From Candidatus Pacearchaeota archaeon (GTDB lineage Archaea; Nanobdellota; Nanobdellia; Pacearchaeales; GW2011-AR1): DNA of 64,000 nucleotides. The notes under the pieces were generated by a model. That model ran no database searches, had not been told where the DNA came from, and worked only from the letters and a program-made list of their open reading frames with translations. Made by a program: the position numbers and the translations under genes. Below, one piece after another: positions 15,901 to 51,901 of the stretch; positions within the stretch are counted from its first letter, which is position 1, and each line of letters begins with the position of its first letter. The DNA lies in NCBI GenBank assembly GCA_009694725.1, contig SICV01000002.1, forward strand, positions 26,966-90,965. The letters run 5' to 3'.

Positions 15901-15913
15901 TTTATTTTTTTTA

Positions 15914-31624: not shown

Positions 31625-32976
31625 ACCTTCATCTTTTTGCCGAACTTCTTGGCAAGTTTCATCATGGCTTTTTGATCAAGGGGTTTGCCTTCAAGCGATG
31701 ATTGGGATTTGAGCATGTCTTTGAGCATGTCGTATTGTTTCAGAAGGGCTTTAATTTCTGCATTTGATGTGCCTGATCCTTTTGCAATTCTTCCAATCCG
31801 TCCTGGTTCTGTATCAATGAGCTCTGGATGTTCAATTTCATTTTTTGTCATGGAGTTAATAGCATGCTTCCAGCGTTTGACTTTTGCTTGTTGTTCTTCT
31901 AATGCTGCTTGCGGGATTTTTGCTTTGCCTAAGCCTGGAATCATGCCTATCAGTTTGTCCATGCCCCCCATTGATTCCATACTCTCTAATTGCGTTTGGA
32001 GATCACGGAGGGTGAATTTTCCTTCTTCTAGGCGTTTTTGTTGCGCTTCGATGGTATCTTTATCTATAACGGAATGAATTTTTTCTATGAGTGATGTAAG
32101 ATCACCCATACCTAGTAATCTACTGAGAAATGCATCGGGGTCAAATGTTTCAAGATCTGCGGGTTTTTCTCCGGTACCAATAAAGAGAATTGGTGCTTTG
32201 ACTTCTGCACAAGCGGTGAGTGCTCCGCCTGCTTTTGCGGCGGAGTCCATCTTTGTGATGATGACTCCAGTGATCTGGGCAGTTTCTGTGAATGCCTGGG
32301 CTTGTTTCTTGGCTGTTTGTCCGATATCTGCAGCCATAACCAGGAATGCTTCGGTTGGTTTGGTGAGTTTGACGACTGTTTTAAGTTCGGTGATGAGGTC
32401 TTCAGATAATGCATCACGTCCTGCAGTGTCGATGAGCACGAGATCAAATGATTTGAGATCGTTTTGAAAGTGTTTGTATATTTTTGAGGGGTTTTTTTCT
32501 TCTGGAAGGATGAAACAAGGAACTTTGAGTTTGTCGGAGAGTTGTTTGAGTTGCAAGGCAGCGGCGGGGCGATGGACGTCTAATGAAAGCGTACAGACTT
32601 TTTTGCCGCGTTTGGTGTAATAGCTGGCGAGTTTGCCGATGGTCGTTGTTTTTCCTTGCCCATACAGACCAAGGACGATCCAGACGTTTTTTTCTTGAAG
32701 TTCTAAGGTGCGTTTTTCTCCTAAGAGCGCACGCAGTTCATCATGGAGGAGCTTGATGAGATGTTCTTTCTTTTCGATACCGGAGATGCGTTCGTCCAAG
32801 GCGGTCTGTTTTATTTTCTTTGTGATTTCGAGGACGAGTTTGACGTTGACGTCTGCCTCTAAGAGTGCACGTTGAAGGTCCTTGACCATTTGATCTACGA
32901 GGTTCTTATCAAGAAAGAGGGCGTTTGCTATCTTGTCTGTTGTTTTCTTGAGTGTTTCAGAGAGCTTTTCAAGCAT
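31621..32976 (-). CDS. srp54: signal recognition particle protein SRP54
   Basis: GLYGQGKTTTIGKLA, DTAGRD, Met-rich M domain. Confidence 0.95.
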   Translation of the reverse strand: MLEKLSETLKKTTDKIANALFLDKNLVDQMVKDLQRALLEADVNVKLVLEITKKIKQTALDERISGIEKKEHLIKLLHDELRALLGEKRTLELQEKNVWIVLGLYGQGKTTTIGKLASYYTKRGKKVCTLSLDVHRPAAALQLKQLSDKLKVPCFILPEEKNPSKIYKHFQNDLKSFDLVLIDTAGRDALSEDLITELKTVVKLTKPTEAFLVMAADIGQTAKKQAQAFTETAQITGVIITKMDSAAKAGGALTACAEVKAPILFIGTGEKPADLETFDPDAFLSRLLGMGDLTSLIEKIHSVIDKDTIEAQQKRLEEGKFTLRDLQTQLESMESMGGMDKLIGMIPGLGKAKIPQAALEEQQAKVKRWKHAINSMTKNEIEHPELIDTEPGRIGRIAKGSGTSNAEIKALLKQYDMLKDMLKSQSSLEGKPLDQKAMMKLAKKFGKKMKV

Positions 32977-34636: not shown

Positions 34637-35722
34637 TTATAGGCCTAAGTTCTTTATCACTGTCTTTTTCGTGAAGGGGAGGAGGTCTTCGTATTTTTGG
34701 CCGGTGCCGAGGAAGTAAATGGGCTTGTTGGTGATGTGGGCAATGGAAAGAATAGTGCCTGCTTTTTCATCAATGTCTGCTTTCGTGAGGATGGAACCGT
34801 CGATTCCTGCGGTTTCGTTGAAAGTACGTGCTTGCTCAAGAGCGTCGTTCCCGGTGATTGATTCTCCGACGAAGAGTTTGAGGTTGGGCTTACTAATACG
34901 GATTATTTTTTCCATTTCTTTCATGAGATTTGTTTTGGTGTACATTCTTCCTGCCGTATCTATCAGTACCACTTGAATCTTGTGGGCTTTTGCGTATTCT
35001 ATGGCATTGAATGCGATGCTTGCAGGATCTGCTTCGTATGTGCCCTTGATGCAGGGGACGTTGAGGGCTTTGGCGTGATGGTCCAGTTGTTCAATTGAGG
35101 CTGCACGGAAGGTATCGCCGGCTGCGAGTACGACTGAGATATTGTTTTGTGTGAGATAGTGTGCCACCTTTGCGATACTGGTTGTTTTACCCGTGCCGTT
35201 AATACCAAAAAAAAGAATCACATAGGGTTGGGCAGTGGTCACTTGTTTGAGGAATGCGGGAGGTTCTTGTAAGATGGAGAGGATTGCGCCCTGGAGAGAC
35301 GCAAGGATTTTTTGTTGTGCTTCGTTTTTTTTACAATTGAGTCCTACCAGATCTTTTTGGAGCGATGATTTGATTGCGTCTATTGCTTCAACCGCTGTAT
35401 TGTTTTCGAGGAGGGTGATTTCAAGGTCTTCAAATGCTTCATTGAAATCTGCTTCTGAGAGTTGGGAGGTAGTGAGCTTTCTGACCAATTTTGAGAAGAA
35501 TGATTCTTTTGGTTGTTCTGCATATGTTTCTTCTTTTGTTTCGGGAGTGAGAAGGGTTTCTATTTCTTGTTCGGTTTGTTGTTCTGCTTTTGTTTGAGTC
35601 TTCTTAGAGGGTTTTGTTTTTTGCTCTTTTTTCTTGGTATTCTTGCTTTCTTTCTTCTTCGTGGGCTTTGTTTCTTTGGTTCCTACCCAGGATTTGATTG
35701 TTTTTTTGAGGAAATCGAACAT
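34637..35722 (-). CDS. ftsY: SRP receptor FtsY
   Basis: Lys/Glu-rich N-terminus, GINGTGKTTSIAKVA, DTAGRM, TKADID. Confidence 0.9.
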   Translation of the reverse strand: MFDFLKKTIKSWVGTKETKPTKKKESKNTKKKEQKTKPSKKTQTKAEQQTEQEIETLLTPETKEETYAEQPKESFFSKLVRKLTTSQLSEADFNEAFEDLEITLLENNTAVEAIDAIKSSLQKDLVGLNCKKNEAQQKILASLQGAILSILQEPPAFLKQVTTAQPYVILFFGINGTGKTTSIAKVAHYLTQNNISVVLAAGDTFRAASIEQLDHHAKALNVPCIKGTYEADPASIAFNAIEYAKAHKIQVVLIDTAGRMYTKTNLMKEMEKIIRISKPNLKLFVGESITGNDALEQARTFNETAGIDGSILTKADIDEKAGTILSIAHITNKPIYFLGTGQKYEDLLPFTKKTVIKNLGL

Positions 35723-35814: not shown

Positions 35815-36369
35815 ATGCTGAGCTATACTGACTTGTATGAAGTGGTACGAAAAGAGAAATATGGGGATGTGTTACAAAATTTACCTAAAGAGTTCTTAGG
35901 AGATATCACTGCCTTTTTACAGGAGAAGCGAGGACAGGCTCCGAAGGATGATGGGTTGTTTCAAGAAGAAGTAGTGAAGCAACGGAAGCAATTAGATAAT
36001 TCATTGGCTTTATTTAAAGAATTGATGCGTTTGCGTCGTAAGAAACTATTACAATTAGTGCATATTGCGACTGAAACGGGCATTATGAAACGCGATTATG
36101 AGAATATGCTTTCGTTTGAGCGCACTATGTTTGACGCGTTTGTACAGGCTGCTGAACGAGCAGAGAAAGAGATGCAGAAAGTATTGCATAGTCCTGCGCT
36201 TGCTGTACCCACTCAAAAACTTATTTTATTTACGCAGCCCGTTGAACCATTTGTCAGTATGAGTGGGGAGATGTTGGGCCCCTATGTCACGGGAGAATTA
36301 GCGAATTTAGATGGGCAGATTACAGATGTATTGGTACAGGGTGGAAAAGCTACGTATGTTGATCAGTAA
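35815..36369 (+). CDS. GINS subunit (Gins51-like), putative
   Basis: N-terminus SYTDLYEVVRKEKYGDVLQNLPKEFLGDITAFLQE is typical of archaeal GINS. 184 aa. Confidence 0.45.
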   Translation: MLSYTDLYEVVRKEKYGDVLQNLPKEFLGDITAFLQEKRGQAPKDDGLFQEEVVKQRKQLDNSLALFKELMRLRRKKLLQLVHIATETGIMKRDYENMLSFERTMFDAFVQAAERAEKEMQKVLHSPALAVPTQKLILFTQPVEPFVSMSGEMLGPYVTGELANLDGQITDVLVQGGKATYVDQ

Positions 36370-37145: not shown

Positions 37146-37269
37146 AGCCTCCAGGGGGAATCGAACCCCCGACCCTTAGTTTTTCTGCGTGTTCACCGTT
37201 TGGGTGAAGCGTGAGGGGTGAAACCCCTACGCTACAAAACTAATGCTCTGCCAACTGAGCTATGGAGGC
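37146..37269 (-). tRNA. tRNA-Thr (anticodon TGT) with 51-nt intron at 37/38
   Basis: Hand-folded. Acceptor GCCTCCA/TGGAGGC, D arm GCTC-AGTTGGCA-GAGC, anticodon stem TTAGT/ACTAA with loop TTTGTA[intron]A, T arm GGGGG-TTCGATT-CCCCC. Confidence 0.85.
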
Positions 37270-37286: not shown

Positions 37287-37395
37287 CTATAACTCCTTTC
37301 TCTCCTTTGAAAAGAAAAGGGGAACCAGGCCCTATAACTCCTTTCTCTCCTTTGAAAAGAAAAGGGGAACCAGGCCCTATAACTCCTTTCTCTCC
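37287..37395. repeat. 45-bp tandem repeat, 2.4 copies
   Basis: Unit CTATAACTCCTTTCTCTCCTTTGAAAAGAAAAGGGGAACCAGGCC at 37287, 37332 and 37377 (partial). The copies are perfect. Each unit carries GGAGTTATAG (minus sense), a TATA-like box facing tRNA-Thr. Confidence 0.9.
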
Positions 37396-37501: not shown

Positions 37502-37573
37502 GGTCCTGTCGTCTAACGGTTATGACACATCTTTGACGTGGATGGGGCCCCAGTTCAATTCTGGGCAGGACCA
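37502..37573 (+). tRNA. tRNA-Val (anticodon GAC)
   Basis: Acceptor GGTCCTG/CAGGACC, anticodon arm CATCT-TTGACGT-GGATG, T arm CCCAG-TTCAATT-CTGGG. TATA GCTTAAATAGG upstream. Confidence 0.8.
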
Positions 37574-37617
37574 CTTCTTTCTACATTTTTCCTTCCTTTG
37601 TTGTCTGTGTGATTTTA

Positions 37618-37662
37618 CTTACTAAGTAAGATAGTAAGTAAGTTACTAATAAGTTTTATATA
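37618..37662 (+). promoter_or_regulatory. two TTACT/AGTAA palindromes abutting a TATA box
   Basis: CTTACTAAGTAAG (37618-37630, perfect palindrome), AGTAAGTAAGTTACT (37634-37648), then TTTTATATA (37654-37662). Confidence 0.45.
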
Positions 37663-37694
37663 GTAGGGTAGAGTGTGGATGCAGAGGAGAGAGG

Positions 37695-37829
37695 ATGAAG
37701 AAATACTTACTATTAGTTGAGGATGAGCGCATATGGGAGCAGTTTAAGAAAGTGATTAGCCAGGATTTGAATACAGAGATTTTGCAGTTAATTCGCGAGA
37801 AGGTGGGGGTATCACATGGGAAAAAATAG
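37695..37829 (+). CDS. 44-aa protein, possibly RHH-type regulator
   Basis: MKKYLLLVEDERIWEQFKKVISQDLNTEILQLIREKVGVSHGKK. Preceded by GGAGGAGAGAGG. Overlaps the next ORF by 14 nt. Confidence 0.4.
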   Translation: MKKYLLLVEDERIWEQFKKVISQDLNTEILQLIREKVGVSHGKK

Positions 37830-39639
37830 GGGGCAGACGGTCACGCTCTTTGTTATCATTGCGTTGGTCTTTGTGGGTGGTATTGCTGGATATTTTGCGG
37901 TGCAGAAGGGATTGTTAGGTACTCAAGACACTGAATCATTTAGTGCGGTGTATCAGTATTATGATCAGTGTGTACAACAAGCCCTTCAGGAAGGGGTTGA
38001 GCTTGCAGGATTGCAAGGGGGATGGATATATGTCCCGGATTATATTGAAGGAAGTACGCGGTATCCAAGTGGATCGCAGCTTTCTTTCTTAGGACAAGGC
38101 ATTCCCTATTGGTTATATGTTTCTGGAAATGGACAATTAGTTGAGCAGGTACCGACTAAAACGCAGATGGAACAAGGTATTGCGCGCTATATCAAAGAGG
38201 AAGTTGCTTTGTGTGATTTTGGTCCTTTATACGTACAAGAGTATGAAATTGGATCAACGGTTGACACGGTGACGGTCAGGGTTGGTGAAGGAACGGTTGA
38301 TGCTGTGGTAAAGGGAGAACTTTTGGTTGCGCGCGATGGACAGGAAGCACGAGTTTCTTCTCGTAGTTATTCAGAAGCAAGTCAGTTAGGTGCACTGTAT
38401 CTTCAAGCACTTGCCTGGTATCAGTCTGAAAAAGAAAGTGCTCTTTTGGAAAATTATACTCGTGATGTGTTGGTTAATTATGCTCCGGTTGATGGGGTTG
38501 AAGTGAAGTGTGGTCCGCAGGTATGGGAAACACGAAAGGTAGTGGATACACTTCGTGAAGGAATAAGTGCTAATCTGGGGGCATTGTCTTCCGAACGAAC
38601 AGGGTATTTCAAAGTAGTTGGAGAAGGAACGGCTCCGGTTCGTTTTATGAGTGATTCTTCCTGGCCAGGGCGAGTTGAAATTTATGGGGAGGGCGTTTCT
38701 CAGGAAGTGATGCTTGCACAGCCCATTGGTACACAACAGGGATTAGGGGCACTTGGCTTTTGTTATGTGCCGTATCATTTTGTGTATGATATTGTTCATC
38801 CAGTGCTAGTACAATTTGGAGAAGGAGATGGTGATCTTTTTCAATTTCCGTTGATTCTTGTTATTGATAAAAACCTTCCTCGTCAGGGATTGAGTGGAGA
38901 GATTGAGCAAGGGCCTTCTCAGGATTTGTGTTTACAGCTAACTGAGGAACTTTCTATTCGTGTTTCAGATGTTGCTTTAGAACCTGTCCTCAATGTAACT
39001 GTTTCTTATTCTTGTTTTGATCAGGAGTGTCGGGTTGGAGAAGGGAATGGCGTTGTGCAGGGTAAGGCACCAGGATGTGTGAATGGACAGCTCGTTGTTC
39101 GTGCTCCCGGTTATCAGGAGAAATCACTTTTGTTTTCTTCTACTGAGGAAGAAGAAGCAGATATTATTCTTGATAAAACGTATCCTGTTCGAGTAGCATT
39201 GTTTGCGGGGGGGAAGGAAGTTGGGGAGACAGGGATTGTTTCGTTCCACGGTACTGCACAGTCTACTGCAGTTGTTCCTTCTCAAACCGAGGTTTCTTTG
39301 GTTGAAGGTTTGTATAATGTGAGTGTATTGGTGTATGGGAATACGAGTATTCAGCTTGAAGCTTCAACAACTCAGCAGTGTGTGGATGTACCTATTGGAG
39401 GGATCGGGGGACTCTTTGGGGGAACAAAGGAGCAGTGCTTTAGTGTGACTATTCCTGCAAGTACGGTTGAGTATGCATTATTGGGTGGAGGAGAGAGTAC
39501 CGTGTATTTGTTCCCTGCAGATTTAGAAGATGGACAAGTGCGTATTGATATCCCTGCTCTTCAGAAACCAACCTCTTTGACTCAGTTACAAACCTTTTAT
39601 GATCAATTTACTACTCAATCTGCGATGGTGACTCCATGA
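37816..39639 (+). CDS. 607-aa surface protein with pilin-type class III signal
   Basis: MGKNRG|QTVTLFVIIALVFVGGIAGYF. No recognisable domain in the remainder. ATGA overlap with the giant gene. Confidence 0.7.
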   Translation: MGKNRGQTVTLFVIIALVFVGGIAGYFAVQKGLLGTQDTESFSAVYQYYDQCVQQALQEGVELAGLQGGWIYVPDYIEGSTRYPSGSQLSFLGQGIPYWLYVSGNGQLVEQVPTKTQMEQGIARYIKEEVALCDFGPLYVQEYEIGSTVDTVTVRVGEGTVDAVVKGELLVARDGQEARVSSRSYSEASQLGALYLQALAWYQSEKESALLENYTRDVLVNYAPVDGVEVKCGPQVWETRKVVDTLREGISANLGALSSERTGYFKVVGEGTAPVRFMSDSSWPGRVEIYGEGVSQEVMLAQPIGTQQGLGALGFCYVPYHFVYDIVHPVLVQFGEGDGDLFQFPLILVIDKNLPRQGLSGEIEQGPSQDLCLQLTEELSIRVSDVALEPVLNVTVSYSCFDQECRVGEGNGVVQGKAPGCVNGQLVVRAPGYQEKSLLFSSTEEEEADIILDKTYPVRVALFAGGKEVGETGIVSFHGTAQSTAVVPSQTEVSLVEGLYNVSVLVYGNTSIQLEASTTQQCVDVPIGGIGGLFGGTKEQCFSVTIPASTVEYALLGGGESTVYLFPADLEDGQVRIDIPALQKPTSLTQLQTFYDQFTTQSAMVTP

Positions 39640-42600
39640 GATATTGGCTTTTTCTTTTTGCTTGTCTGTTTGTGTTGCCCTCTGTGTATGCTGGATCTGC
39701 GTCATTTGTTACGAATCAGTATACGCAGCCTAGTTTCAATACGTATTATGGGGGGAGTATTGGCACGTATTGGCCTATTTTGGATGAGAAAGAGCAATGT
39801 TTGGCTCGGCAAGATGTCTTGATGCAGGTTGCTCCTGCAGGCTGTCAACCGTCGGTTGTGCGGAGTGATCTTCTTGCTGAACAAAATGTGCCCGTGTTCT
39901 GTCAATTGAATGCGTTACAGATTAATCCGTTAGTGACTATTAAGGAACTTGAAAGCATACGATTCACCGGGAATTATCCGAAAGAAGTGAGCAGTGTCGG
40001 GTTCCACCCTGCTCGTGCAGCATTACGAACACGAGACCAATTATTGGGAGATCCGTTACTGAATAATGTAGGGTATGTCGTGATTGTATTAAAGAAACAA
40101 CCGAAAGAATCAGAGTTGCCCAGTTCAGTGAAGCTGATGCTTTCTGCAAACATCAAATATGATGCGGGGAATGCACGCGGGGTAGGAAAATCTGAATTTT
40201 TATTGACTGAACAGAGCGATGAGGAATGGACGCAAGCACAAAAAGAGGGGAGACAGGGATTTTTCAATGGTAAGTATCAGGTTCGACTTGAAGATGCAGA
40301 TGTGCGCGGAGCGACAGTCGGTATTTATTCAGGAGTACGTAAACTTGGAGAAGCACAGGTTGAGCAAGGGAAACAATCTTCTGAAATCTTTTTACCCGGT
40401 AGTTATTGTCGTGCAGGCGTACGTGCTGAATTGCTGGGCTATGAGATTGGTAAAGAACGAGCAACCTTACGTATTACTGGAACATACGGGACTGAAACTG
40501 TTGATGTGTACCAAGGGAGTAGTTTCTTACAGGGGCAGTGTCGCTTGACCCGGTTAGTGATTGATAATCGTACGGGGAGAACGGGAGAAGTGGAGATTAA
40601 ATGTGCGAGTGCTAAAGCGTTCAAATTGAAATTATTGCCGAATGCAGGGGTGTATGAGGTCTTTACTCTTGATGATGGTTCGTTGATTACTCCTTCTCAA
40701 ACAGGGGAGATTGATTTCGGACAACGAACTCCTGCTTATACCTCAGGGAGATTTCGTCTGAGCAGCATTGGAGCATTGCAACATTATAATCAAACAGCTC
40801 AAGGACAGGGATGGGTGAATCTCTCTTTGACTGGTTCTGGAGAACAGGTTCTCTGGTATCGAGCTTTGTTGGTTGGTTTGCAAGAGCATCTGAAACAACA
40901 GAAAACACAGAATACTCCCACTCCGAAGGTATTACGTGAAAAGAGTTATGCTTCAGATATTGAAGCAAACTTTAGCGCCACCATTGCTTCATATCGTGCG
41001 GTTGCGCAGCAGTATCCGGGAGAGAAAGGAACTGACTTGGAAGGTATTGAAACGTATGGGGAGCAAGCCTTGTACCGTGCGGCACAGCTTGCAGGTTCAT
41101 ATGGAAAACAAAGTACACAAGCGACGTTATTACAAGAGTTACTGACTACGTACCCCGACTCTGTATCCTTTATTCGTTATCAACAAGAATTGACTCAGTT
41201 AAGTGAGATTGATGGGTCTGAATCAAGTGCCGTACTTTCTCTGCAAAATGTGTATCGTACGATTACGCTGACGAGCTTGATTCGTCCTGCTCAAACTGCC
41301 TCCGTTCGATTACAGATTAATAATGAGCCGGTGATTTTACACGTTGGGGAAAATTGGACACGAGATTCTGGGTTTATTCGATTGTCTCGTTTAGAAGCAG
41401 ACCGGGTTTTACTTGAAACAAATTGTGCGTTTAATGTGCGTCGTGCTGAAACTTCCTTTGTTCAAGTAGAAGAACGTTCAGGAAGGGGAGGGGTACGAAC
41501 GGTAACAATGGGTGAAAATGATGATGGGACGATTTGTGGGCGGGGAGTACGTATTGCTGAAATTGATAGTGAGAAACTTGCACGTATTCGATTGACGACG
41601 AGTGCTGAACGTACTGAGACGACTACGAATGTGTCTGTGCAGATAGGGATTGAAAAACGTGCAATTCAATTATCTCCCGCGAAAACTGCGGAACGTATTG
41701 GAAACTTGAATAAAAGCATTCAGAAATGGGATCAATTGAACAAAAATGTGGGGAAGGTTGTTACGACCATGAAAGCAGCCTGTTTTGCTACGGCTGGGGT
41801 GTTGACGGTGAAGAATTTCTTTGCTGGTTTAAGCGGGAAAGGATTCGCGCGGAAAGAAGCGATGAACGGAGCGAATGGGTGGACTGAATTCTGTCGGAAA
41901 CAGGTTGGTGCTGGAACAGATGGTTTGCGGACGTTTGATCAGTGTTATCTCAAGTATGCTCCCGATATCGATGCAGATGTAGCGAAGCGAGATGCTGCGG
42001 TGAAACAAGTAAATGCACGTATTACGGCCATTCAAAAACAGGACGGGGTGAAGACTTCGGAAGGGTTCTTTGGTGATTCTGTGAATACTGATGAAGCTGC
42101 GAAGCGGTATCGTACGGAGTTACAAAATACCTATGGCGATACATTAAAGGGTGTTTCTCTTGAACATGCAAGTTACACTGAATTACGTGAATTAGATATG
42201 AATCTCTTACTCCAACAGCAGGGAGGAGGGAGTGAGCAATTACAGAAAGATGCGCGTGTCAAATTAGAAGGTATTCAGAAGAGTGCGGCTGGTCAAGCTC
42301 TTCTTGCTCAACAGCTTAAAGCGGATGCAGAAGTTGCACAACGGGGAGATATTCGAGGGTTGGTTGTTGCTCCAAATTCTCAATTACCTCGACAAGCAGC
42401 GATTATTTCTCAAGCTGCGGTGAATACGACTGGAGCACTGTATTATGCAGGAGACTTCAAGTATTATACAAAAGTTATTGCAACAGGTTCGTCTGATGCT
42501 CAAGGTAATACCTATGGTTCTGATACCTATGGATTAGGACTTGCTAAGCAATCTGACGGCACGTATGTTGTACAAGAAGTCTTTCAATCAGATGGCACTC

Positions 42601-45600
42601 CCTTACCTGCTGGTGAACGAGAACGCTTTATTACGCAGTATAATGTTGGCTCCTTCAAAGATAGTGCCTCTTCGAATTGGGAGAAGTACAAGTGGGATAA
42701 GCCAGTTATCCAGTATTATGAGACTGATCCGTATAAAGGGTTGCCTGCATTAGTGCCAGTTGATCCTGATCATGGGTGGTATGCAGCAACGAAACAAACC
42801 TTGCCTGCCTTTGGAGGGCTTGCAGGGTGGGAGAGTTCAGGCAGAGTAGCGAGCTTTTACTTATGTAATGTGGGAGAGAATCGAAAACCTGATGTGTTCA
42901 ATGGGTATAATGATGATAGTTGTACGTTGATTAATCTTGCTTCTGGCCAAGCAGCTGATAAAGTGCCCGGTGTTTCAGAAACACGTGCACAACAGTTAGT
43001 GAAACAAGCTCGTGAAGCATTAGAAGAAGCTGCTCGGGCGCATAAGCAGGGAGCAAAGAGCCTACGACTGCAAGGAAGTCAGCATAAAACGCCTTATGCA
43101 GTTGAGAAACCTGCTGTTTCGGTGCCGGGTGTGCAATGTCAAGACTTTATGAGTCCAACCGAATGTAATTTGTTGTTTAATGTGTGTGATCCGGTGATTT
43201 GCCCGGCGAGTCGGTGTGATTTTGGAGGGAAATATCCTGTCCAGGATGTTATCCAATCAGGTATTATTGGAAGTACGTTGTTGTGTATGCCTAATTTCCC
43301 TGAAGTGAAGATACCGGTGTGTTTGAGCGGTATTCATGCAGGGATTGATGCGTATACGAAGATTTTGCAAGCGCATCGGGATTGTTTACAGGAAAGTTTG
43401 ACATCGGGACGAATGGTGGGCATTTGTGATCAAATTTATTCGATTTATAGCTGTGAATTCTTCTGGCGGCAACTTAGTCCGATTGCTAATTTAGTGGTAC
43501 CTAAATTATTTGAACAAGCTCAAGGGCAGGGAGCACGAGGAGGGGGAGAATATTTGACGGTTCAGAATGCTTGGACAAACACAAAGCAAAGTACGGATTA
43601 TTTGACTACTGTATATGGGGTGAATGCGTTTAAAGCATTCCAGGCACGAAGTACCGAGGAAGTTGGTGGGGAAGTGTGTAAAGGGTTTATATCTGGTACC
43701 TTCCCTGGGAGTTTCAAAAGTTTAGTACAACCCGATAGTCCAGTGCAATTTAATGCTTTTTTCAGCACTATTAAGTATACGGATGCAACGGTACCGGCGA
43801 CCTCCCAGTATAAGGTGTTTTATCATATTTATGCGGGGAAGGATCAGGGCATTAGTTATCGTGTGTTTTTGAAGAATCCCCCTGCAACGAGTTATTATGC
43901 TTCTCAGCCCACTATTCAAGTGAGCTCGGGTTTCATTGGGAAAGGATTGTTTAAAGATGAGACCAAAGACTTCACGGCTCCGGAAGGATACCAAGAATTA
44001 TGTGTCGTCATTAATGGGGATGAACGGTGCGGATTCAAACAAGTGTCTACTTCCTTTGCGGTGAATCAATTGCGGGATGCAGTGGTGGCAGATGAATTGA
44101 AGAATACCAATATTGCGAGTGAACAAGCGTGTATTTCAGGTACGGTGAGTGCGGCTGCTTTGTTGAATCCTAATTTGAATCAAATGGCTGATGAAGCTGC
44201 TGATCCGGCGATCTATCGCCGCGGGATCATTCGAGTGTGTTCGAGTGGGAACCCAGGTCAAACAACTGATCCGAGTCGGTTTGCGGATGTGGGATATTGT
44301 GGGGATATGAAATTGCGGTGTTGGTTAGATCGACAAAGCGTGCAGAATGCTATCACTGATGTCAATAAAGGGGTTAAGAATGAAACCTATCAGTGGTTTG
44401 CGAATCAAACTCTTGCCAATCTTCAGAAAGATGGGAAAGTATTAGGTGCTGATGCGGGCTTTTCGGAATTGACGCGTCTTGAGGGTGTGGTGAGTGGCCT
44501 TGAGAATTATCAAGGGCAGAAATCGAGGTTATCTGCTGATCAGTCTACTCGTCTGGGATTGTTATTCCTTGAATTTGGACAGACGAAAGAAGCGTTGTTC
44601 TTTAATCATCATCGTGCACGTTTGGGGTGGTTAGTGGGACGAGCACAGGAAGTCTTGTTTAAACATACGTTTGCGGCACGGGCGGACGATACTAGACAGA
44701 CTGGGCAATTGGATAAGGGGATATTGGTACGTGAGAATGGGCGTGTGTGGGAAATTCGTTTTGATCGATCGCAACCGTGGGAGTCTTTTGATTCATTCTT
44801 GTCTAGTAACGATTATGCTCAACAATTAAGTGCATTCCAGAGAGCATTGGTTGATTATCTTCAGATTACTGATCCTGAAGAAGCACATATTACGTTACTT
44901 GGAGGTTCGGGCAGGGCGCAAGGAGTTACGGTAACTTCGACAAATGAGACTGAACAAGCATATTACTATATCCCCTTTGGTGATTCGCCGAGTTCTTCTG
45001 ATGTGGGGACGAATGGTAATCCTGCGGTTGCTGCTCAAGATGCTGCTGGTGCGGGTTCTTCTGGAACGGCGGGAGTTGGTGGCGCTCAGGGAGTTACACC
45101 CGTTATCTCAGTTTCTCGTATTATTTGTACGTTAGCTACGACGAGTGAACTTGATGCTCCTGCGGTTCATTTTGGCTTTAATACGGTGATCAGTAAATGG
45201 GAATGGTCTTTCGACAAAAAGAATTGGAATGCATTGACTGAAATATATGGAATACACGAAGACACCGACCAATCTTTTCAATTGTCTGGGAATGCTTCTT
45301 TAGTTGCTCAAGCATTGCAGTCTACGTCTTCCTTTGCTGTTGGAAAAATTGATTTACAGAAGTATGGGGCGACGGGAGAATGTCTTACTGCTTCGACACC
45401 TGTTGTAGCCGGAACAACTTCTCCTTCTGGAATAGCTGCGGGTTCTTCTCTTTCTGGAGAGTTATTTTTACATTTCACTTCTCAAGGAGTATGGAAGGTT
45501 TCTTTGCGAAGTGCAACTGGCATAGCTTATTCTCTTGACGCTTTCAATGAGCTTTTCTTGGGTTCCGCAGGTCTTTCTCTTGAATATCTTCCCCTTCTTG

Positions 45601-46226
45601 AATCACTCAAAGAAACAACGTCTTATTTAGAAGCCCAATCGATTTTACGTAGTGAATGGGAACCTCGAGGATTTACTATTCAAGAACGTAGTTCAGACAA
45701 TCTTTTTGCGATTACGTATGGTAATGCTCCTGTTGTCTCCCCTACGTCTGGGGTTACCCCTTCGGGAGCTACCCCTCATACTCCTCGTACTTCTAACGTT
45801 GCTAAGCCTTTAGGCGCATTTCGTTTAGATACCTCTTTGCCTCGCATGGGCGCTGAGGAAAATCGCATTTCGGCGATAAGTTCTACCAAGAAACTTATTG
45901 ATACTTCTTTTTATATTGTTAAGAAAGGGACGTTGTTTACGGTGAAATATCGTGCGACGGTATCAGGGGCTAATTGGTTTGGAAGAGATTTGGAAGTTGG
46001 GCGAGCATTTATTGGGACAGAGGGCGGAACGGGAGATGGGGGAGTGCTTGAAGTTACGTTACAACCGGTGTTGAGTCGTATTCCAAGTGCTGAACGAACT
46101 GATGCGGTGAAGTATGCACGATTATTACATGAAGGAATTATTGATGGGGTTGAGATTTACTCTCAAGATGCATTACCACAAGAACAGACAATTACTGGTG
46201 GAAAAACTGGCGGAAAAGGGTTCTGA
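39636..46226 (+). CDS. giant secreted protein (2196 aa), function unknown
   Basis: Uninterrupted 6.6-kb ORF. Sec-type signal MRYWLFLFACLFVLPSVYA|GS. Cys-rich block CQDFMSPTECNLLFNVCDPVICPASRCDFGG. Ala/Gly/Ser-rich linker. No C-terminal TM. Confidence 0.85.
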   Translation: MRYWLFLFACLFVLPSVYAGSASFVTNQYTQPSFNTYYGGSIGTYWPILDEKEQCLARQDVLMQVAPAGCQPSVVRSDLLAEQNVPVFCQLNALQINPLVTIKELESIRFTGNYPKEVSSVGFHPARAALRTRDQLLGDPLLNNVGYVVIVLKKQPKESELPSSVKLMLSANIKYDAGNARGVGKSEFLLTEQSDEEWTQAQKEGRQGFFNGKYQVRLEDADVRGATVGIYSGVRKLGEAQVEQGKQSSEIFLPGSYCRAGVRAELLGYEIGKERATLRITGTYGTETVDVYQGSSFLQGQCRLTRLVIDNRTGRTGEVEIKCASAKAFKLKLLPNAGVYEVFTLDDGSLITPSQTGEIDFGQRTPAYTSGRFRLSSIGALQHYNQTAQGQGWVNLSLTGSGEQVLWYRALLVGLQEHLKQQKTQNTPTPKVLREKSYASDIEANFSATIASYRAVAQQYPGEKGTDLEGIETYGEQALYRAAQLAGSYGKQSTQATLLQELLTTYPDSVSFIRYQQELTQLSEIDGSESSAVLSLQNVYRTITLTSLIRPAQTASVRLQINNEPVILHVGENWTRDSGFIRLSRLEADRVLLETNCAFNVRRAETSFVQVEERSGRGGVRTVTMGENDDGTICGRGVRIAEIDSEKLARIRLTTSAERTETTTNVSVQIGIEKRAIQLSPAKTAERIGNLNKSIQKWDQLNKNVGKVVTTMKAACFATAGVLTVKNFFAGLSGKGFARKEAMNGANGWTEFCRKQVGAGTDGLRTFDQCYLKYAPDIDADVAKRDAAVKQVNARITAIQKQDGVKTSEGFFGDSVNTDEAAKRYRTELQNTYGDTLKGVSLEHASYTELRELDMNLLLQQQGGGSEQLQKDARVKLEGIQKSAAGQALLAQQLKADAEVAQRGDIRGLVVAPNSQLPRQAAIISQAAVNTTGALYYAGDFKYYTKVIATGSSDAQGNTYGSDTYGLGLAKQSDGTYVVQEVFQSDGTPLPAGERERFITQYNVGSFKDSASSNWEKYKWDKPVIQYYETDPYKGLPALVPVDPDHGWYAATKQTLPAFGGLAGWESSGRVASFYLCNVGENRKPDVFNGYNDDSCTLINLASGQAADKVPGVSETRAQQLVKQAREALEEAARAHKQGAKSLRLQGSQHKTPYAVEKPAVSVPGVQCQDFMSPTECNLLFNVCDPVICPASRCDFGGKYPVQDVIQSGIIGSTLLCMPNFPEVKIPVCLSGIHAGIDAYTKILQAHRDCLQESLTSGRMVGICDQIYSIYSCEFFWRQLSPIANLVVPKLFEQAQGQGARGGGEYLTVQNAWTNTKQSTDYLTTVYGVNAFKAFQARSTEEVGGEVCKGFISGTFPGSFKSLVQPDSPVQFNAFFSTIKYTDATVPATSQYKVFYHIYAGKDQGISYRVFLKNPPATSYYASQPTIQVSSGFIGKGLFKDETKDFTAPEGYQELCVVINGDERCGFKQVSTSFAVNQLRDAVVADELKNTNIASEQACISGTVSAAALLNPNLNQMADEAADPAIYRRGIIRVCSSGNPGQTTDPSRFADVGYCGDMKLRCWLDRQSVQNAITDVNKGVKNETYQWFANQTLANLQKDGKVLGADAGFSELTRLEGVVSGLENYQGQKSRLSADQSTRLGLLFLEFGQTKEALFFNHHRARLGWLVGRAQEVLFKHTFAARADDTRQTGQLDKGILVRENGRVWEIRFDRSQPWESFDSFLSSNDYAQQLSAFQRALVDYLQITDPEEAHITLLGGSGRAQGVTVTSTNETEQAYYYIPFGDSPSSSDVGTNGNPAVAAQDAAGAGSSGTAGVGGAQGVTPVISVSRIICTLATTSELDAPAVHFGFNTVISKWEWSFDKKNWNALTEIYGIHEDTDQSFQLSGNASLVAQALQSTSSFAVGKIDLQKYGATGECLTASTPVVAGTTSPSGIAAGSSLSGELFLHFTSQGVWKVSLRSATGIAYSLDAFNELFLGSAGLSLEYLPLLESLKETTSYLEAQSILRSEWEPRGFTIQERSSDNLFAITYGNAPVVSPTSGVTPSGATPHTPRTSNVAKPLGAFRLDTSLPRMGAEENRISAISSTKKLIDTSFYIVKKGTLFTVKYRATVSGANWFGRDLEVGRAFIGTEGGTGDGGVLEVTLQPVLSRIPSAERTDAVKYARLLHEGIIDGVEIYSQDALPQEQTITGGKTGGKGF

Positions 46227-46233: not shown

Positions 46234-47058
46234 TTATAATCCGCGACCAGTTGATGCTGGAGGGTTGGTTGTAGGTACTTGGTTTGTACGCGCGAAGTAT
46301 TTTTCTTGAGGGATTGTAACTGCGCGGTATACGATTGCATTTGTGCCTTTTCGTTGCATACGCATGATTCCTTCAGGGGAATAGGTTTGTTGTGCATCTG
46401 TTTTAATGAGCGCAAAGGGTACTGCGTTTGTTGCAGGGAGTGCTTCTGATTGCTTGGTAAGGTCATTGTCAACATGATAGGGTGTGCCGTTGAGTGTCGC
46501 AATTTCAAGTGTGCGATTCATACGTACTTTAAGACCTTGTGCTGTCCCGGAGTGTTTGGCATTAAGGTTTGTATTGAGATAGGTTCGGGTTGCAGAGAGT
46601 TTGTCTGATCCGTTGGTGGGGAATTGCCAGCCTTTGATTGGTTCACCGTTTGCAGTGTAGTTAACCGGAACGAAGACGTAGAGAGGGCTATCAATAAGAG
46701 CGGTGTTAGTACCGTTGTTCAGGACAAGGGTGCTGTTATTGAGTGCTTGGAGCGTGAAATCAAGTTCTCCTGCGTGGGGGCGATCATTCGTATTAACTAC
46801 ATAGGGCTTTCCTTCCCACATGAAGAGACGCGCGTTTACTTTTTGTGTGGTGTGGTCTTGATGGAATCCTACTGAAGATTCAAGAGAAGAGGGTACGTTA
46901 TAGGTATTGGTATGTGTGTGTGTTACGATTGCAGGTTGTGCTTGAGATTGAGGTTGCGAACTTTCAGGTGTAGATGATTTCTTACAGGATGCTGCACCTA
47001 CAATTGCACCGACAACAGTCAGTCCAAGTATCGTTGGTATTGCGTTTCTTATAGCCAT
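46234..47058 (-). CDS. putative lipoprotein
   Basis: Lipobox-like LTVVGAIVGAASC followed by an S/Q/P-rich linker. 274 aa. Confidence 0.6.
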   Translation of the reverse strand: MAIRNAIPTILGLTVVGAIVGAASCKKSSTPESSQPQSQAQPAIVTHTHTNTYNVPSSLESSVGFHQDHTTQKVNARLFMWEGKPYVVNTNDRPHAGELDFTLQALNNSTLVLNNGTNTALIDSPLYVFVPVNYTANGEPIKGWQFPTNGSDKLSATRTYLNTNLNAKHSGTAQGLKVRMNRTLEIATLNGTPYHVDNDLTKQSEALPATNAVPFALIKTDAQQTYSPEGIMRMQRKGTNAIVYRAVTIPQEKYFARTNQVPTTNPPASTGRGL

Positions 47059-47985: not shown

Positions 47986-48921
47986 TCATTTCTTACTGGC
48001 TTTTTCAGCAGACGCGAGGACTTTTGCTTTTAATTTGTCCTCGAGTTTGAGACGATCAATGAGCTCTTTGTATCTGTTTCTGATGGTGACTTCAGTGATG
48101 CCTGCGACATCTGCTACTTCACGTTGGGTCTTTTTTTCATCGTTGAGGAGGGCGGCTACGTAGAGGGCAGCTGCGGCGATGCCTGCTGGTCCGCGTCCTG
48201 AGGTGAGTTCGGAGATATCAGCACGTTTGAGGATTTTGAGAGCTTCATTCTGGGCTTTTGGTGAGAGATGGAGGATGGATGAAAATCGTGAGATATAGTC
48301 TTTGGGAGAGCTCGGTGTGACTTTTATTTTGAGCTTGCGTACGATGAAACGGTAGGTTCGTCCGATTTCTTTGCGCTCCACATCTGAGGCATTTGCAATT
48401 TCATCAAGGGTGCGAGGAATGTTGTAGGAACGACAGGCTGCGTAAATACAGGCTGCAATGACTGATTCCATACTTCTGCCACGGACGAGACCACGTTGGA
48501 GGACATAATTGTATACTCGTGAGGATTCATCCCGCACTACTGAAGGTAAGTTGAGGAAACTGGCGACACGGCGAAGTTCGGACATGGCTAATCGAAGGTT
48601 ACGTTCAATACTGGTGGAGACACGTTCTTGCCATTTTTTTAACCGAAGGAATTTTCGGGTTTGACCTGATTCAAGACGATAGATATCTGAAATTTCTCCG
48701 ACGTTCGTGGTCAGACCTTTGTCGAATTTCTGCATCGAGATGGGTGCTCCCCCTCGTCCTTTCTTTTCGTTTTTATCAAATGAACCCCCTGGATCGTGAC
48801 CTGTGTCGACCATTTTATCTTCTACAATTAATCCACAATCGTTACAGATAAGTTCGCCCCGATGATCGTCATACGTAAGCGACGTACTGTTACACTCGGG
48901 GCAGCGTTTTTGGTGACTCAT
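47986..48921 (-). CDS. tfb: transcription initiation factor TFB
   Basis: Zn ribbon CPECNS..CNDCG, two cyclin-fold repeats, C-terminal HTH VADVAGITEVTIRNRYKEL. Confidence 0.95.
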   Translation of the reverse strand: MSHQKRCPECNSTSLTYDDHRGELICNDCGLIVEDKMVDTGHDPGGSFDKNEKKGRGGAPISMQKFDKGLTTNVGEISDIYRLESGQTRKFLRLKKWQERVSTSIERNLRLAMSELRRVASFLNLPSVVRDESSRVYNYVLQRGLVRGRSMESVIAACIYAACRSYNIPRTLDEIANASDVERKEIGRTYRFIVRKLKIKVTPSSPKDYISRFSSILHLSPKAQNEALKILKRADISELTSGRGPAGIAAAALYVAALLNDEKKTQREVADVAGITEVTIRNRYKELIDRLKLEDKLKAKVLASAEKASKK

Positions 48922-49484: not shown

Positions 49485-49844
49485 TTATTGTACTAAGACT
49501 GCGTTCACTTGGCCTTCTTGACCTGGACGATTGGTAATGCGAGCTTTACCTGCTTCTGTTGTGATTACTGCGCCTTTCATTAAACGATTTTGACGAGCAT
49601 AGAATCGATTTGCAGGGGTTTCTTCCACATTGGTGATTTTGACTTGTTTGATTTTACCTTTGACAACGACATTAGCGATGTCAGTCTTGAGTGTGATTGT
49701 TTTCATACTTCCACCACGGATTCTTAATTGTTTGACTTTTGTTTCACCTAAGAGTGTGTGACGTTCAGGATTATGAAGTTCATACTTCTTACTCTTGCGT
49801 TGTTTGTGATAGCGTCCGCCTGAAATCTTTCGACCATATGCCAT
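49485..49844 (-). CDS. rps8e: ribosomal protein S8e (eS8)
   Basis: GRKISGGRYHKQRKSKKYE...RIRGGSMK. Confidence 0.85.
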   Translation of the reverse strand: MAYGRKISGGRYHKQRKSKKYELHNPERHTLLGETKVKQLRIRGGSMKTITLKTDIANVVVKGKIKQVKITNVEETPANRFYARQNRLMKGAVITTEAGKARITNRPGQEGQVNAVLVQ

Positions 49845-49971
49845 GATTATCGTTGGATTTCAATGCTTTATAAAGATTTGTTTCAAGAATTTATTTCTTT
49901 TTCTCCCAACAGTACGTTCCTTTCCTTTTTTATTACGATATCTTTATATAGGAACTTTTGAAGGGGACTAT

Positions 49972-50217
49972 ATGGCTACCAAAATTGAACGACCTTTGGA
50001 CCTCTTGAATGCCTCTCGAGGAAAAGAAGTGTTGGTTCAGCTGAAGGGCGACAAGCAATATGTCGGAACGCTGTTGGCGTTTGACATCCACATAAACGTT
50101 GTCTTAGACAACGCAAAGGAATTGCTTGACGGTCAGGTAAAGAAAAGTATTGGAATCACGTTCCTACGTGGCGATACGATTATCTTTATCTCACCTGCTT
50201 CTACTGCTGCTAAATAA
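49972..50217 (+). CDS. Sm-like archaeal protein (SmAP/LSm)
   Basis: PLDLLNASRGKEVLVQLKGDKQYVGTLLAFDIHINVVLDNA..FLRGDTIIFI. TATA TCTTTATATAGG lies 25 nt upstream of this ATG. Confidence 0.9.
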   Translation: MATKIERPLDLLNASRGKEVLVQLKGDKQYVGTLLAFDIHINVVLDNAKELLDGQVKKSIGITFLRGDTIIFISPASTAAK

Positions 50218-50359: not shown

Positions 50360-51259
50360 CTACAACGTCAGCACATCAAAGTCATTCGCTGCTTTAACGT
50401 TCTTGAAGACTTTCTTTGCTTCTTTGATGAGAAGGTCGGTGCGATGTTCATAGCGTTGAGAAATGTGCGTGAGCATGAGTGCTTTGGCTTTTGCTTGTTT
50501 TGCTATTTGTGCAGCTTGTGCAGCTGTAAGATGATGGTATTCTTTGGCTTTTTCTGTTTCTTCTTGTGCGAAACTTGCTTCAGTAATTAAGAGGTTTGCA
50601 TCTTGGGCATGTTTGGCAAGGTGAGGGTGGAATCCTGTATCTAAGATAATAGTTACTTTTCTTCCTGGCTCTTGGTAGGTGACTTGGGATGGTTTGATTG
50701 TTTTACCATTGATAGTAATTGTTTTCCCTGCGGCTAATTGCCCCAGTTGCGGGGTATTGGGGAGCTTGAGTTTTTTGAGTTTTGCTTTATCTAATCGCGT
50801 TTTCTCTTTAATGATAAATGAGTAGCCGAGTGCGGGGCAGTCATGGTGGACTGAAAATGCCTCTACGCTCCATTCAGGCGTTTCCATGATTACTCCTGGA
50901 TTGATTTCATGCACTTCGAGTTTGATAGGCATGCCAGTCATGAGTTGAGTAATTGCGTGCATGAAATGATTGCTTCCTTTAGGGCCATAGAGATGGAGGG
51001 TTTTTGCATAGTCTGACATGCCTAGACTTTGGAGTAATCCGGGAAGTCCGAGTATATGGTCGCCATGCCAGTGAGTTATACAGATGTGGGTTATCTTATG
51101 AGGGCTGAGTGATGCTTGAGGAAATTGGCGTTGGGTGCCTTCTCCACAATCTACCAAAAGTCCAAGGTTTTTGTAGGTAAGTAGCATTGATGTATGGTTA
51201 CGCTGAGGGGTGGGAATTGCGTTTCCCGTACCGAGAAAGGTGAGCGTGATTGGTTCCAT
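50360..51259 (-). CDS. rnz: ribonuclease Z (tRNA 3' endonuclease)
   Basis: Metallo-beta-lactamase motif ITHWHGDHILGLPGLL. Start trimmed to MEPITLTFLGTGNA, 25-30 nt downstream of TATA CATATTAAAAC. Confidence 0.85.
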   Translation of the reverse strand: MEPITLTFLGTGNAIPTPQRNHTSMLLTYKNLGLLVDCGEGTQRQFPQASLSPHKITHICITHWHGDHILGLPGLLQSLGMSDYAKTLHLYGPKGSNHFMHAITQLMTGMPIKLEVHEINPGVIMETPEWSVEAFSVHHDCPALGYSFIIKEKTRLDKAKLKKLKLPNTPQLGQLAAGKTITINGKTIKPSQVTYQEPGRKVTIILDTGFHPHLAKHAQDANLLITEASFAQEETEKAKEYHHLTAAQAAQIAKQAKAKALMLTHISQRYEHRTDLLIKEAKKVFKNVKAANDFDVLTL

Positions 51260-51310
51260 TTTGTAGGGAGACAAGGAAGGTTTTAATATGTTCGTGCTTC
51301 TTTCTTTGGT

Positions 51311-51901
51311 ATGAGAGTTGCACTGATTGTTTCTGTACTTCTTTTTTTGATAGTGGGGACTGGATTTTATGCAGGGATGCATGTTGCTTCATTTACTGGT
51401 CATGTGGTGAGTGATGAATATCGAGTGTTCGACAGCGTTACTAGTAATGCGGGAACAAAGGCGCGTATTGTCAGTATTGTTGGAGGAGATGAACGTGTGT
51501 TGATTACTTTGGAAGTGCAGGATCTAGTTCTTCGTGAACATAGCATGACCTTTGTTAGTGTGTTCTCTGTTGCAGGAGAAGAAGTTGGGCGAGCTACTGA
51601 AGAAGTGCTTGTGCCGTATAGTGCTATAACCCTTGTAGCCCTTTCTGTACCTGTGCGTCCACTTACCGGACAGGAAGCCACGCTTCGTATCGAGGGCACA
51701 GATGATTTGGGTACGTTATATATCGAAGGAACAACCAGTCTTACGGTTACTTCTGTCTCCTATACTCGATTATGGTGGGGATTTGGAGGTTTTTTTGTAT
51801 TACTCGTTCTTATTTTCTTAGTCGTTCGCCATTTATTGACCCGTGCGAACGTTGCCTCTTTTGCACAAGTACATTCTGATGGCTTGATACACTTACGTTA
51901 G
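51311..51901 (+). CDS. membrane-anchored protein (hypothetical)
   Basis: N-terminal and C-terminal TM segments. Shares the bidirectional TATA with rnz. Confidence 0.55.
   Translation: MRVALIVSVLLFLIVGTGFYAGMHVASFTGHVVSDEYRVFDSVTSNAGTKARIVSIVGGDERVLITLEVQDLVLREHSMTFVSVFSVAGEEVGRATEEVLVPYSAITLVALSVPVRPLTGQEATLRIEGTDDLGTLYIEGTTSLTVTSVSYTRLWWGFGGFFVLLVLIFLVVRHLLTRANVASFAQVHSDGLIHLR

Follow-up and report, generated by a model that had tools for sequence, protein, structure and literature searches.

In bacterial type IV pilus tip complexes, minor pilins are joined by a large, Sec-secreted non-pilin adhesin, PilY1/PilC, and this large protein relies on a pilin-like partner for its display at the surface. 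In the surface layer (S-layer) of the Sulfolobales, the operon for SlaA and SlaB (PDB 8qox) encodes a large anchorless outer protein and a smaller, membrane-anchored protein rich in beta-sandwiches. Class III signal peptides, the hallmark of prepilin-peptidase substrates, also occur on non-pilus surface proteins, for example the sugar-binding proteins of the Sulfolobus "bindosome", and the SPEARE proteins of Nanohaloarchaeota are giant surface proteins of DPANN archaea with a reportedly proposed role in host contact. The operon described here shares traits with each of these systems. It lies in a 64,000-nucleotide stretch of contig SICV01000002.1 (hereafter, the window) from a Candidatus Pacearchaeota archaeon, and it encodes proteins of 44 amino acids (aa), 607 aa (the partner) and 2196 aa (the giant). 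The reading favored here, with moderate confidence, is that the operon specifies a regulated two-protein surface complex in which a pilin-like protein serves as the anchor, the giant as the scaffold, and its variable tail as the distal part.

The three open reading frames (ORFs) are on the forward strand, at 37695–37829 for the 44-aa protein, 37816–39639 for the partner, and 39636–46226 for the giant. A preliminary description of the window had placed three overlapping ORFs at these positions and the last two in an ATGA overlap, and this layout is indeed what the DNA holds, with 14 nt shared by the first two ORFs and the ATGA at 39636–39639. An interrupted giant ORF would have pointed to an assembly artefact; the ORF is uninterrupted and of the same length, 2196 aa, in three independent assemblies (contigs of 28.6, 56, and 109.5 kb), which rules the artefact out. 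The best relatives of the operon proteins come from metagenome-assembled genomes (MAGs) labelled Pacearchaeota, Woesearchaeota, or Nanoarchaeota. Word-indexed searches of 5.8 billion proteins (E ≤ 1e-3), in which scoring was confined to the 8,000 candidates with the largest number of shared words, gave 577 relatives of the giant and 621 of the partner among those 8,000, the latter about 40% identical over their full length, and every source name given for the relatives of either protein was "hypothetical protein". An exhaustive search with aa 640–1640 of the giant returned 1176 representatives of 50%-identity clusters at E ≤ 1e-3 and 936 at E ≤ 1e-30. Likewise, when each GTDB species was represented by one genome, at least 564 contigs encoded the partner.

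The arrangement of the three genes was surveyed in 82 loci (L001–L082) with flanks of up to 10 kb. The giant gene directly follows the partner gene in 79 of the 79 loci where there is room for it, and the remaining three have less than 40 nt of contig left. The junction between the two genes is −4 nt in 46 of 75 loci, with −11, −8, or −1 nt in most of the others. Clearly, the two genes form an obligate, translationally coupled pair; the preliminary description had already seen an operon that couples them in the window. The 44-aa ORF is directly upstream of the partner gene in 69 of the 82 loci and overlaps it in 56 of those 69. Housekeeping genes are frequent nearby (41 loci for Gins, 36 for TFIIB, and 32 for FtsY), with S8e also part of the conserved synteny, and no relative of the partner was found on viral contigs; together, this conserved synteny and the viral-contig result rule out a mobile or viral origin of the operon. 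The trio is a fixed, translationally coupled core-genome operon of Pacearchaeota- and Woesearchaeota-type DPANN archaea, and it is apparently single-copy per genome in almost all cases. One MAG, CAZVKQ01 (SRP269290_co4_219), has two contigs (L024 and L066) that each encode a partner, by rare duplication or else by strain heterogeneity or contamination of the bin, while the remaining 78 loci of the genome scan (L003–L082) each come from a different MAG.

A comparison of window proteins with the 82 loci places the operon among its neighbors in terms of constraint. Median identity is highest for TFIIB (87.5%) and LSM (73%), followed by S8e and the 44-aa ORF (both 59%), FtsY (58%), the RNase Z-like protein (52%), and Gins (47%), with aa 640–1640 of the giant at 44% and the partner at 41%.

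The partner begins MGKNRGQTVTLFVIIALVFVGG, that is, a leader, MGKNRG, and then QTVTLFVIIALVFVGG. The class III leader (aa 1–6), the putative cleavage point between G and Q, and the hydrophobic helix QTVTLFVIIALVFVGGIAGYFAV (aa 7–29) are encoded at 37816–37902 (+). Among 120 partner homologues, 107 fit the pattern [KR][GA]Q followed immediately by a hydrophobic stretch, with the consensus Q-[VLI]-[TAS]-I-F-[VI]-I-[IV]-A-[IL]-V-[IL]-V after the cleavage point. The G at −1 and the Q at +1 are kept across leaders of 3 to 38 residues and also in homologues that lack a basic residue at −2. Because a plain signal-anchor would have no reason to conserve this G/Q pair, its conservation argues for a class III (prepilin-peptidase) cleavage site. 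A class III signature like that of the window's pilin operon had been claimed for the partner in the preliminary description, and it holds across the partner family. The peptidase is accounted for as well, since a Peptidase_A24 gene of the prepilin/preflagellin peptidase family (16097–16921, +; Pfam PF01478, E 1.2e-6, above the gathering score) is present 21 kb upstream of the partner gene, and its product is a candidate for the enzyme that processes the partner signal.

The partner thus resembles archaeal class III substrates in its short basic leader ending in [KR][GA], the Gln at +1, the hydrophobic helix of about 20 residues directly after it, the A24 peptidase in the genome, and a large globular ectodomain that is not that of a shaft pilin. 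It differs from them in that the ectodomain has no sequence or fold homology to any known substrate, in that the operon also encodes a giant protein secreted through Sec and a probable small regulator, and in that the partner gene is not linked to pilus or bindosome assembly genes. Class-III-like N-termini are found in 9 of the 133 window ORFs of at least 80 aa, namely seven in the pilus locus, the partner itself, and one spurious antisense ORF. The N-termini of the seven pilin-like ORFs are mostly of the form KRG[DE], unlike the RGQ of the partner, and these ORFs match no Pfam or NCBIfam family.

The ectodomain of the partner spans 570 aa and has 10 invariant Cys. An AlphaFold2 (AF2) model with a mean predicted local distance difference test (pLDDT) score of 85.6 consists of a helix at 5–32, a low-confidence hinge at 32–37, a second helix at 40–66, alpha/beta domains, and beta-sandwiches at 377–565. 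Foldseek searches of this model against the PDB returned multi-beta-sandwich adhesins (TIE, SdrD, SpaC, and PitA), SlaB, and transthyretin/CarboxypepD_reg-like domains, and no type IV pilin. The whole-chain TM-scores of the multi-domain matches are only about 0.1–0.2, and the target-normalized score is high only for single beta-sandwich domains of about 80 residues, so that no specific family is indicated. A PDB profile search built on 50–51 homologues gave the partner either noise with E > 0.7 or no match, and hhalign detected no domain shared between the partner and the giant (probability 2%). A C-terminal transmembrane segment occurs in none of the 120 partners; the anchor is N-terminal.

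One way that such a pair could work, put forward in the preliminary description, is through display at a pilus tip. Under this model, the partner is a minor or tip pilin that is built in by the pilus machinery of the window (at 6–17 kb) and presents the giant at the end of the pilus, much as in PilY1/PilC. The window does encode a complete type IV pilus-like locus (6090–16921), made up of a PilB-like ATPase of 756 aa (6090–8360), a PilC-like platform protein of 736 aa (8514–10724, −), seven pilin-like ORFs with class-III-like N-termini between 10853 and 15763, and the A24 peptidase. The presence of these genes favors the model, and so do the conserved class III signal of the partner, an ectodomain too large for a shaft pilin and compatible with a tip subunit, and the Sec signal and missing anchor of the giant. 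The pairing of a pilin-signal protein with a large, anchorless, Sec-signal protein encoded beside it is likewise the arrangement of PilY1/PilC.

The genomic evidence, however, points away from a pilus. The pilin operon named in the preliminary description is real, but it is 21 kb away, and a PilB-like gene is found within 10 kb of the operon in only 1 of the 82 loci; the operon is without physical linkage to pilus genes. Class III signals also mark non-pilus surface proteins, as mentioned above, and the partner has no type IV pilin fold match, its matches to Gram-positive sortase pilins being to generic immunoglobulin (Ig)-like domains with TM-scores of 0.11–0.2. Moreover, Pfam finds no PilY1/PilC domain in the giant, which has no beta-propeller (no Pfam match at E ≤ 1 and no Foldseek propeller for aa 640–1640), is twice as large as PilY1/PilC, is cysteine-rich, and belongs to another domain of life. 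Nor does the operon include a minor-pilin set or sit within a pilus gene cluster. Pilus-tip display is, on this evidence, unlikely. The preliminary interpretation thus holds in part. Coupling and a pilin-type signal are upheld, and the partner co-occurs with the giant throughout; as judged by gene neighborhood, it does not co-occur with pilus genes.

The giant starts with MRYWLFLFACLFVLPSVYA followed by GS, a Sec-type signal peptide (V at −3 and A at −1) encoded at 39636–39692 (+), with probable cleavage before the GS. A hydrophobic Sec-type signal is present at the N-terminus of 110 of 120 giant homologues, and the others look N-terminally truncated; a class III motif occurs in none of the 120. 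The window giant has no internal or C-terminal transmembrane segment. Across the 120 homologues, there are no internal transmembrane segments and no PGF-CTERM sequences, and a hydrophobic C-terminus occurs once. These results bear out, for the family as well as for the window protein, the Sec signal and the missing C-terminal anchor noted earlier. A membrane-spanning giant was also considered and rejected, as the family-averaged hydropathy peaks at 1.43 (aa 1215–1233), which is under the level of a transmembrane segment. The further details quoted in the preliminary description, from the start of the partner to the Sec signal, are all present; they include a Cys cluster, CQDFMSPTECNLLFNVCDPVICPASRCDFGG, at aa 1168–1198, a weakly hydrophobic segment, AACFATAGVLTVKNFFAGL, at aa 714–732, and an A/G/S-rich stretch near aa 1795–1830.

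Overall, the giant looks like a conserved scaffold to which a fast-changing distal module is attached. The conserved core (aa 38–1661; 39747–44618, +) contains 30 family-invariant Cys. Its conserved stretches are aa 51–300, 451–550, 651–780, and 1001–1600, of which 51–300, 651–780, and 1001–1600 are the most conserved, and they are interspersed with variable stretches at aa 301–450, 551–650, and 851–1000. Across 120 homologues, 238 positions are at least 95% identical, and aa 1151–1500 retain 60–66% identity to the query. Many of the invariant core residues are polar, including H1397, D1403, E1305, and D1445. In terms of constraint, the core is about equal to a housekeeping protein. Within it is a Cys-dense, mostly helical center (aa 1168–1273; 43137–43454, +) with 10 invariant Cys and the motif NVCDPVICPxSRCDFGG.

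An AF2 model of aa 640–1640 (pLDDT 71) predicts, in order, a helical bundle of about 220 aa (aa 681–902), beta-rich domains, the helical Cys-rich center, and an Ig-like sandwich; the weakly hydrophobic segment falls inside a long helix of the bundle. Foldseek searches with this model against the PDB and BFVD returned only a generic Ig/ApaG-like sandwich, with no match at E ≤ 1e-3, and a PDB profile search with 50–51 homologues gave noise with E > 0.7 or no match. Scans of all three operon proteins against Pfam, NCBIfam, PHROGs, and PADLOC found no family match, the giant having none in Pfam even at E ≤ 1. As far as the PDB and BFVD libraries go, the fold of the giant is an orphan. The earlier remark that the giant has no recognizable domain thus extends to all of these libraries, and homology to a known enzyme or S-layer family, which would have overturned the preliminary view of this protein, was not found in them.

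Giant proteins of this lineage have been described before. Castelle et al. 2021 (PMC8204110) describe 51 protein families, mostly of unknown function, that form a module restricted to Pacearchaeota and Woesearchaeota, and they highlight fam00969, a giant Pacearchaeota/Woesearchaeota family of up to 3,000 aa with a murein lytic transglycosylase (SLT) domain. An identification of the giant with this family, as described there, is not supported, since no SLT match is present in the window giant or in the precomputed Pfam annotation of the 120 listed homologues. Like SPEARE and fam00969 proteins, the giant is a very large extracellular protein that takes up about 1% of a tiny genome in a putative episymbiont. 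Unlike them, it has no detectable protease, adhesin, nuclease, or lytic-transglycosylase domain, it has no homology to either group, and its family comes with a fixed pilin-signal partner and a conserved operator-like tract. Literature searches found no description of the operon, the partner, or the operator.

The tail of the giant (aa 1662–2196; 44619–46223, +), which includes the A/G/S-rich linker, contrasts sharply with the core. Alignment occupancy drops to 0.2–0.5 and identity to about 5%, and past about aa 1660 the protein is essentially unalignable across 120 homologues. Even a 75%-identical relative does not share the window tail past about aa 1800. A homologue search with aa 1790–2196 returned no match, not even the giant itself, and is hence a weak negative. 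Among the 118 of 120 homologues with an intact C-terminus, the tail past the last conserved anchor, A1661, measures from about 114 to 1093 aa (median 298). Tails diverge several-fold faster than cores. Where cores are 90–94% identical, tails are 36–80% identical (median 61%), and among 1208 pairs at 60–70% core identity, 1108 have no detectable tail similarity. Tails can still be aligned in all 35 pairs whose cores are at least 80% identical, with a median tail coverage of 0.91–1.02, and the tails of close relatives are mostly diverged homologues, not swapped cassettes. A few tails of relatives carry Trypsin, Trypsin_2, or TSP_3 domains, and the giant family is otherwise without domain annotation. 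A tail that evolves this fast is compatible with an exposed recognition module.

It is also conceivable that the giant is a secreted effector, enzyme, or polymorphic-toxin-like protein, in which the core would be a delivery or enzymatic module and the C-terminus an exchangeable effector, for example a protease, that is released or injected into hosts or competitors. The contrast in rate between a conserved core and a variable tail does resemble CdiA/Rhs-type polymorphic toxins, one relative's tail has a trypsin-like peptidase, and the invariant polar residues of the core could be read in the same sense. This explanation is nevertheless very improbable. The tails of close relatives align in all 35 pairs, as just described, and Pfam, NCBIfam, and PADLOC detect no toxin, pre-toxin, or enzyme domain. 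No immunity-like gene follows on the same strand, the next gene being convergent and not conserved in sequence. Finally, the locus is part of the core genome and is not mobile.

Expression of the pair seems to be controlled from the head of the operon. The 44-aa protein is cytoplasmic, starts with MKKYLLLVEDERIWEQFKKVISQDLNTEILQLIREKV, and ends in a basic tail, and its family consensus is MKKYLLLIEDEKLWEKFKxxIxKDINSEIxELIKEKV followed by that tail, with 11 invariant positions (M1, K2, Y4, L5, L6, L7, E9, W14, F17, K18, and N26). Upstream of its gene, a TATA-box-like TTTTATATA, preceded by a purine-rich TAAG resembling a B recognition element (BRE), is found at 37654–37662 (+), and a Shine-Dalgarno-like GGAGAGAGG directly precedes the first ATG at 37686–37694 (+). 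Of 69 orthologous loci, 58 carry TTTWWATA upstream of the 44-aa ORF (median distance to the ATG, 44 nt), and AAGAGG-type motifs in orthologous loci are placed like the Shine-Dalgarno-like sequence of the window. The single promoter that the preliminary description assigned to all three ORFs would correspond to this BRE/TATA-like element.

Adjoining the TATA box is an operator-like tract of about 35 bp (37618–37653) composed of AGTAAG/CTTACT/TTACTAA repeats (CTTACTAAGTAAG-AT-AGTAAGTAAGTTACTAA-TAAG), within which lies a 13-bp palindrome, CTTACTaAGTAAG. No other part of the 64-kb window has such a cluster: the tract scores 7 matches per 70 nt, and all other positions score 2 at most. Its 6-mers are enriched 30–40-fold in 70 orthologous upstream regions, and a consensus persists once the TATA boxes of 58 loci are brought into register (...TTAcTtA.TtA.TTA.TAA.TtA.TaAgTTAATAAGaAAGaTTTATATA). 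The tract occurs in 65 of the 69 loci with the 44-aa gene versus 1 of the 13 without it, and background regions never exceed 3 matches per 70 nt. That about 45 bp of intergenic DNA should be conserved across species whose proteins are 40–60% identical implies strong selection. The simplest reading is that the tract is likely the operator of the 44-aa protein, i.e., that the operon is autoregulated, which would make this protein a probable DNA-binding regulator.

The more specific label of a ribbon-helix-helix (RHH) protein, suggested in the preliminary description, fares less evenly. Like RHH autoregulators of the CopG/Arc/MetJ type, the protein is about 45 aa in length, with an N-terminal strand-like KKYLLLIED and then two helix-like segments, it is encoded by the first gene of the operon that it would regulate, and inverted and tandem repeats at its own promoter form a predicted operator to which it may bind. 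Unlike them, it matches no RHH profile or structure; a PDB profile search gave nothing significant, and a Pfam scan of 33 members touched Arc in only 1 of them, at E 0.2. The likeness is thus one of sequence pattern, and the co-varying tract supports a DNA-binding regulator without the RHH assignment. The head of the operon is not the same everywhere. At L001 (7086–8148), which has neither the 44-aa gene nor the repeat tract, the genes ahead of the partner gene encode two other small proteins, secreted or membrane-bound: one of 167 aa, and one of 195 aa that has both a signal and a C-terminal transmembrane segment. Loci of this kind suggest an alternative operon head in one sub-lineage.

With the partner, the giant, and the regulatory region in view, another arrangement to consider is a two-component S-layer or envelope scaffold, in which the giant would form the outer canopy and the membrane-anchored, beta-sandwich-rich partner the stalk, as do SlaA and SlaB. 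The near-universal presence of the operon in a fixed core-genome position, at apparently one copy per genome in almost all cases, would suit such a structure, as would the strong consensus BRE/TATA promoter, the pairing of a large anchorless protein with a smaller anchored one, and a variable outward region, which many S-layer proteins also have. In addition, the partner gives a partial Foldseek match to SlaB (8qox_B; E 4.8e-4, probability 0.96), a weak similarity in that the TM-scores are only 0.13 and 0.17. Yet the anchor of the partner is N-terminal and bears a pilin-like class III signal, in place of the C-terminal transmembrane segment of SlaB, the gene order is reversed, and a probable dedicated small regulator with its operator suggests conditional and not constitutive expression. 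The giant has no similarity to SlaA and no fold match to any solved S-layer protein, and its 30 invariant Cys and large helical regions are atypical of S-layer proteins. Furthermore, it shows no enrichment of N-glycosylation sequons, and its charge balance is near neutral. A canopy-and-stalk S-layer is accordingly a doubtful alternative.

Under the favored reading of a regulated surface complex, transcription would start from the canonical BRE/TATA promoter, with the repeat tract upstream of it probably serving as the operator of the 44-aa DNA-binding protein, and the three cistrons would be coupled in translation through their overlapping stop and start codons. The partner would then be exported and processed at the G/Q site, like a type IV pilin, by the A24 peptidase of the genome, and its N-terminal hydrophobic helix would retain it in the membrane or, alternatively, at a pilus end. 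The giant, exported through Sec, would fold as a disulfide-rich conserved scaffold of 1,600 residues with up to 15 disulfides. What holds the giant on the cell would be the partner, given that the giant itself lacks an anchor and that its gene is inseparable from the partner gene, to which it is coupled in translation. The conserved core would act as the scaffold or the working part, and the tail, pointing outward, could recognize a host cell, a surface, or a substrate in a lineage-specific manner, with trypsin-like protease or TSP3 repeats in the tails of some relatives.

Several observations weigh against this reading. The evidence for a physical link between partner and giant is indirect, as it is drawn from adjacency and coupling. 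The conservation of the core (60–66% identity, versus 58% for FtsY and 59% for S8e) is high for a surface adhesin and hints at a mechanistic or enzymatic role. The best-conserved, Cys-rich region of the giant is also poorly modelled, with pLDDT values of 30–50 at residues 551–588 and 647–721 of the modelled segment (aa 1190–1227 and 1286–1360), which flank and partly overlap aa 1168–1273. The lack of sequon enrichment counts here too, as the giant shows no other surface-layer signature either. On the side of regulation, the 44-aa protein matches no DNA-binding family by PDB profile or Pfam, tract and gene could co-vary simply because the tract is the promoter region of the 44-aa gene, and the 13 loci without tract and gene may be a single clade.

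The members of this complex are partly of known kinds, in that class-III-signal surface proteins and two-component surface assemblies are both familiar; the orphan-fold giant subunit and the candidate regulator-operator pair are new. Few uncultured archaea are as widespread as Pacearchaeota and Woesearchaeota, which have tiny genomes and presumably live attached to other cells; their hosts and attachment apparatus are not known. Here, about 1% of a genome is spent on one secreted protein, which occurs in hundreds of species at a fixed chromosomal position and is entirely unannotated. These traits single the operon out as a tangible candidate for the principal structure of the surface or of host contact, and it probably does form a main cell-surface or host-contact complex of these archaea. 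The conserved core of the giant could be used as a lineage marker or as an antigen in enrichment work, the variable tail could report on host or niche specificity, and the 44-aa protein and the repeat tract may be a new archaeal regulator-operator pair. A bolder version can be advanced only tentatively, namely, that the operon encodes a hitherto unrecognized, structurally orphan envelope machine that defines Pacearchaeota and Woesearchaeota. In such a machine, a pilin-anchored, disulfide-locked giant would carry out the chemistry of host contact (membrane attachment, bridging, or nutrient or lipid capture) with its Cys-rich core, its tail would set host specificity, and 44-aa DNA-binding proteins of a new family would switch its expression through an operator of tetranucleotide-like repeats.

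Housekeeping genes flank the operon in the window. Upstream are SRP54 (31621–32976, −), FtsY (34637–35722, −), Gins51-like (35815–36369), and tRNA-Val (37502–37574, +); downstream are TFIIB (47986–48921, −), S8e (49485–49844, −), LSM (49843–50217), and the RNase Z-like gene (50360–51382, −). Both the SRP54 and FtsY genes occur at most 6 kb upstream of the gene for the largest secreted protein of the genome, which may be plain synteny. Directly past the giant, a convergent gene for a 274-aa protein (46234–47058, −) ends 7 nt beyond the stop codon of the giant, and its product has a lipoprotein-like start (...VGAASCKKSS). Sequence conservation of this gene was found by tblastn in none of the 82 loci, and L002 has a 267-aa gene in the same position with a similar start (AIGCESQQ).

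The DNA between the upstream genes and the operon also contains tRNA genes and a repeat. The tRNA-Val gene is directly upstream of the operator-like tract, and tRNA 3′ ends occur at the same place upstream of the operon in L002, L005, L012, L022, L029, L043, and L053, which makes the tRNA-operon junction itself syntenic. A second tRNA of 124 nt (37146–37269, −), situated between a 168-aa ORF and the operon, was scored by Rfam at 58 bits and missed by ARAGORN, and it presumably contains an intron. Between these two tRNA genes is a perfect 45-bp tandem repeat of 2.4 copies (CTATAACTCCTTTCTCTCCTTTGAAAAGAAAAGGGGAACCAGGCC; 37287–37395), each unit of which holds the inverted repeat CTCCTTT...AAAGGGG. 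Farther downstream, ARAGORN reports a 93-nt "tRNA-???" with a 4-base anticodon (tcta) at 52917–53009 (+), which is probably another intron-containing tRNA. Over the window as a whole (1–64000), GC skew is positive in all 2-kb bins (0.01–0.35) regardless of the coding strand, and AT skew is mostly negative.

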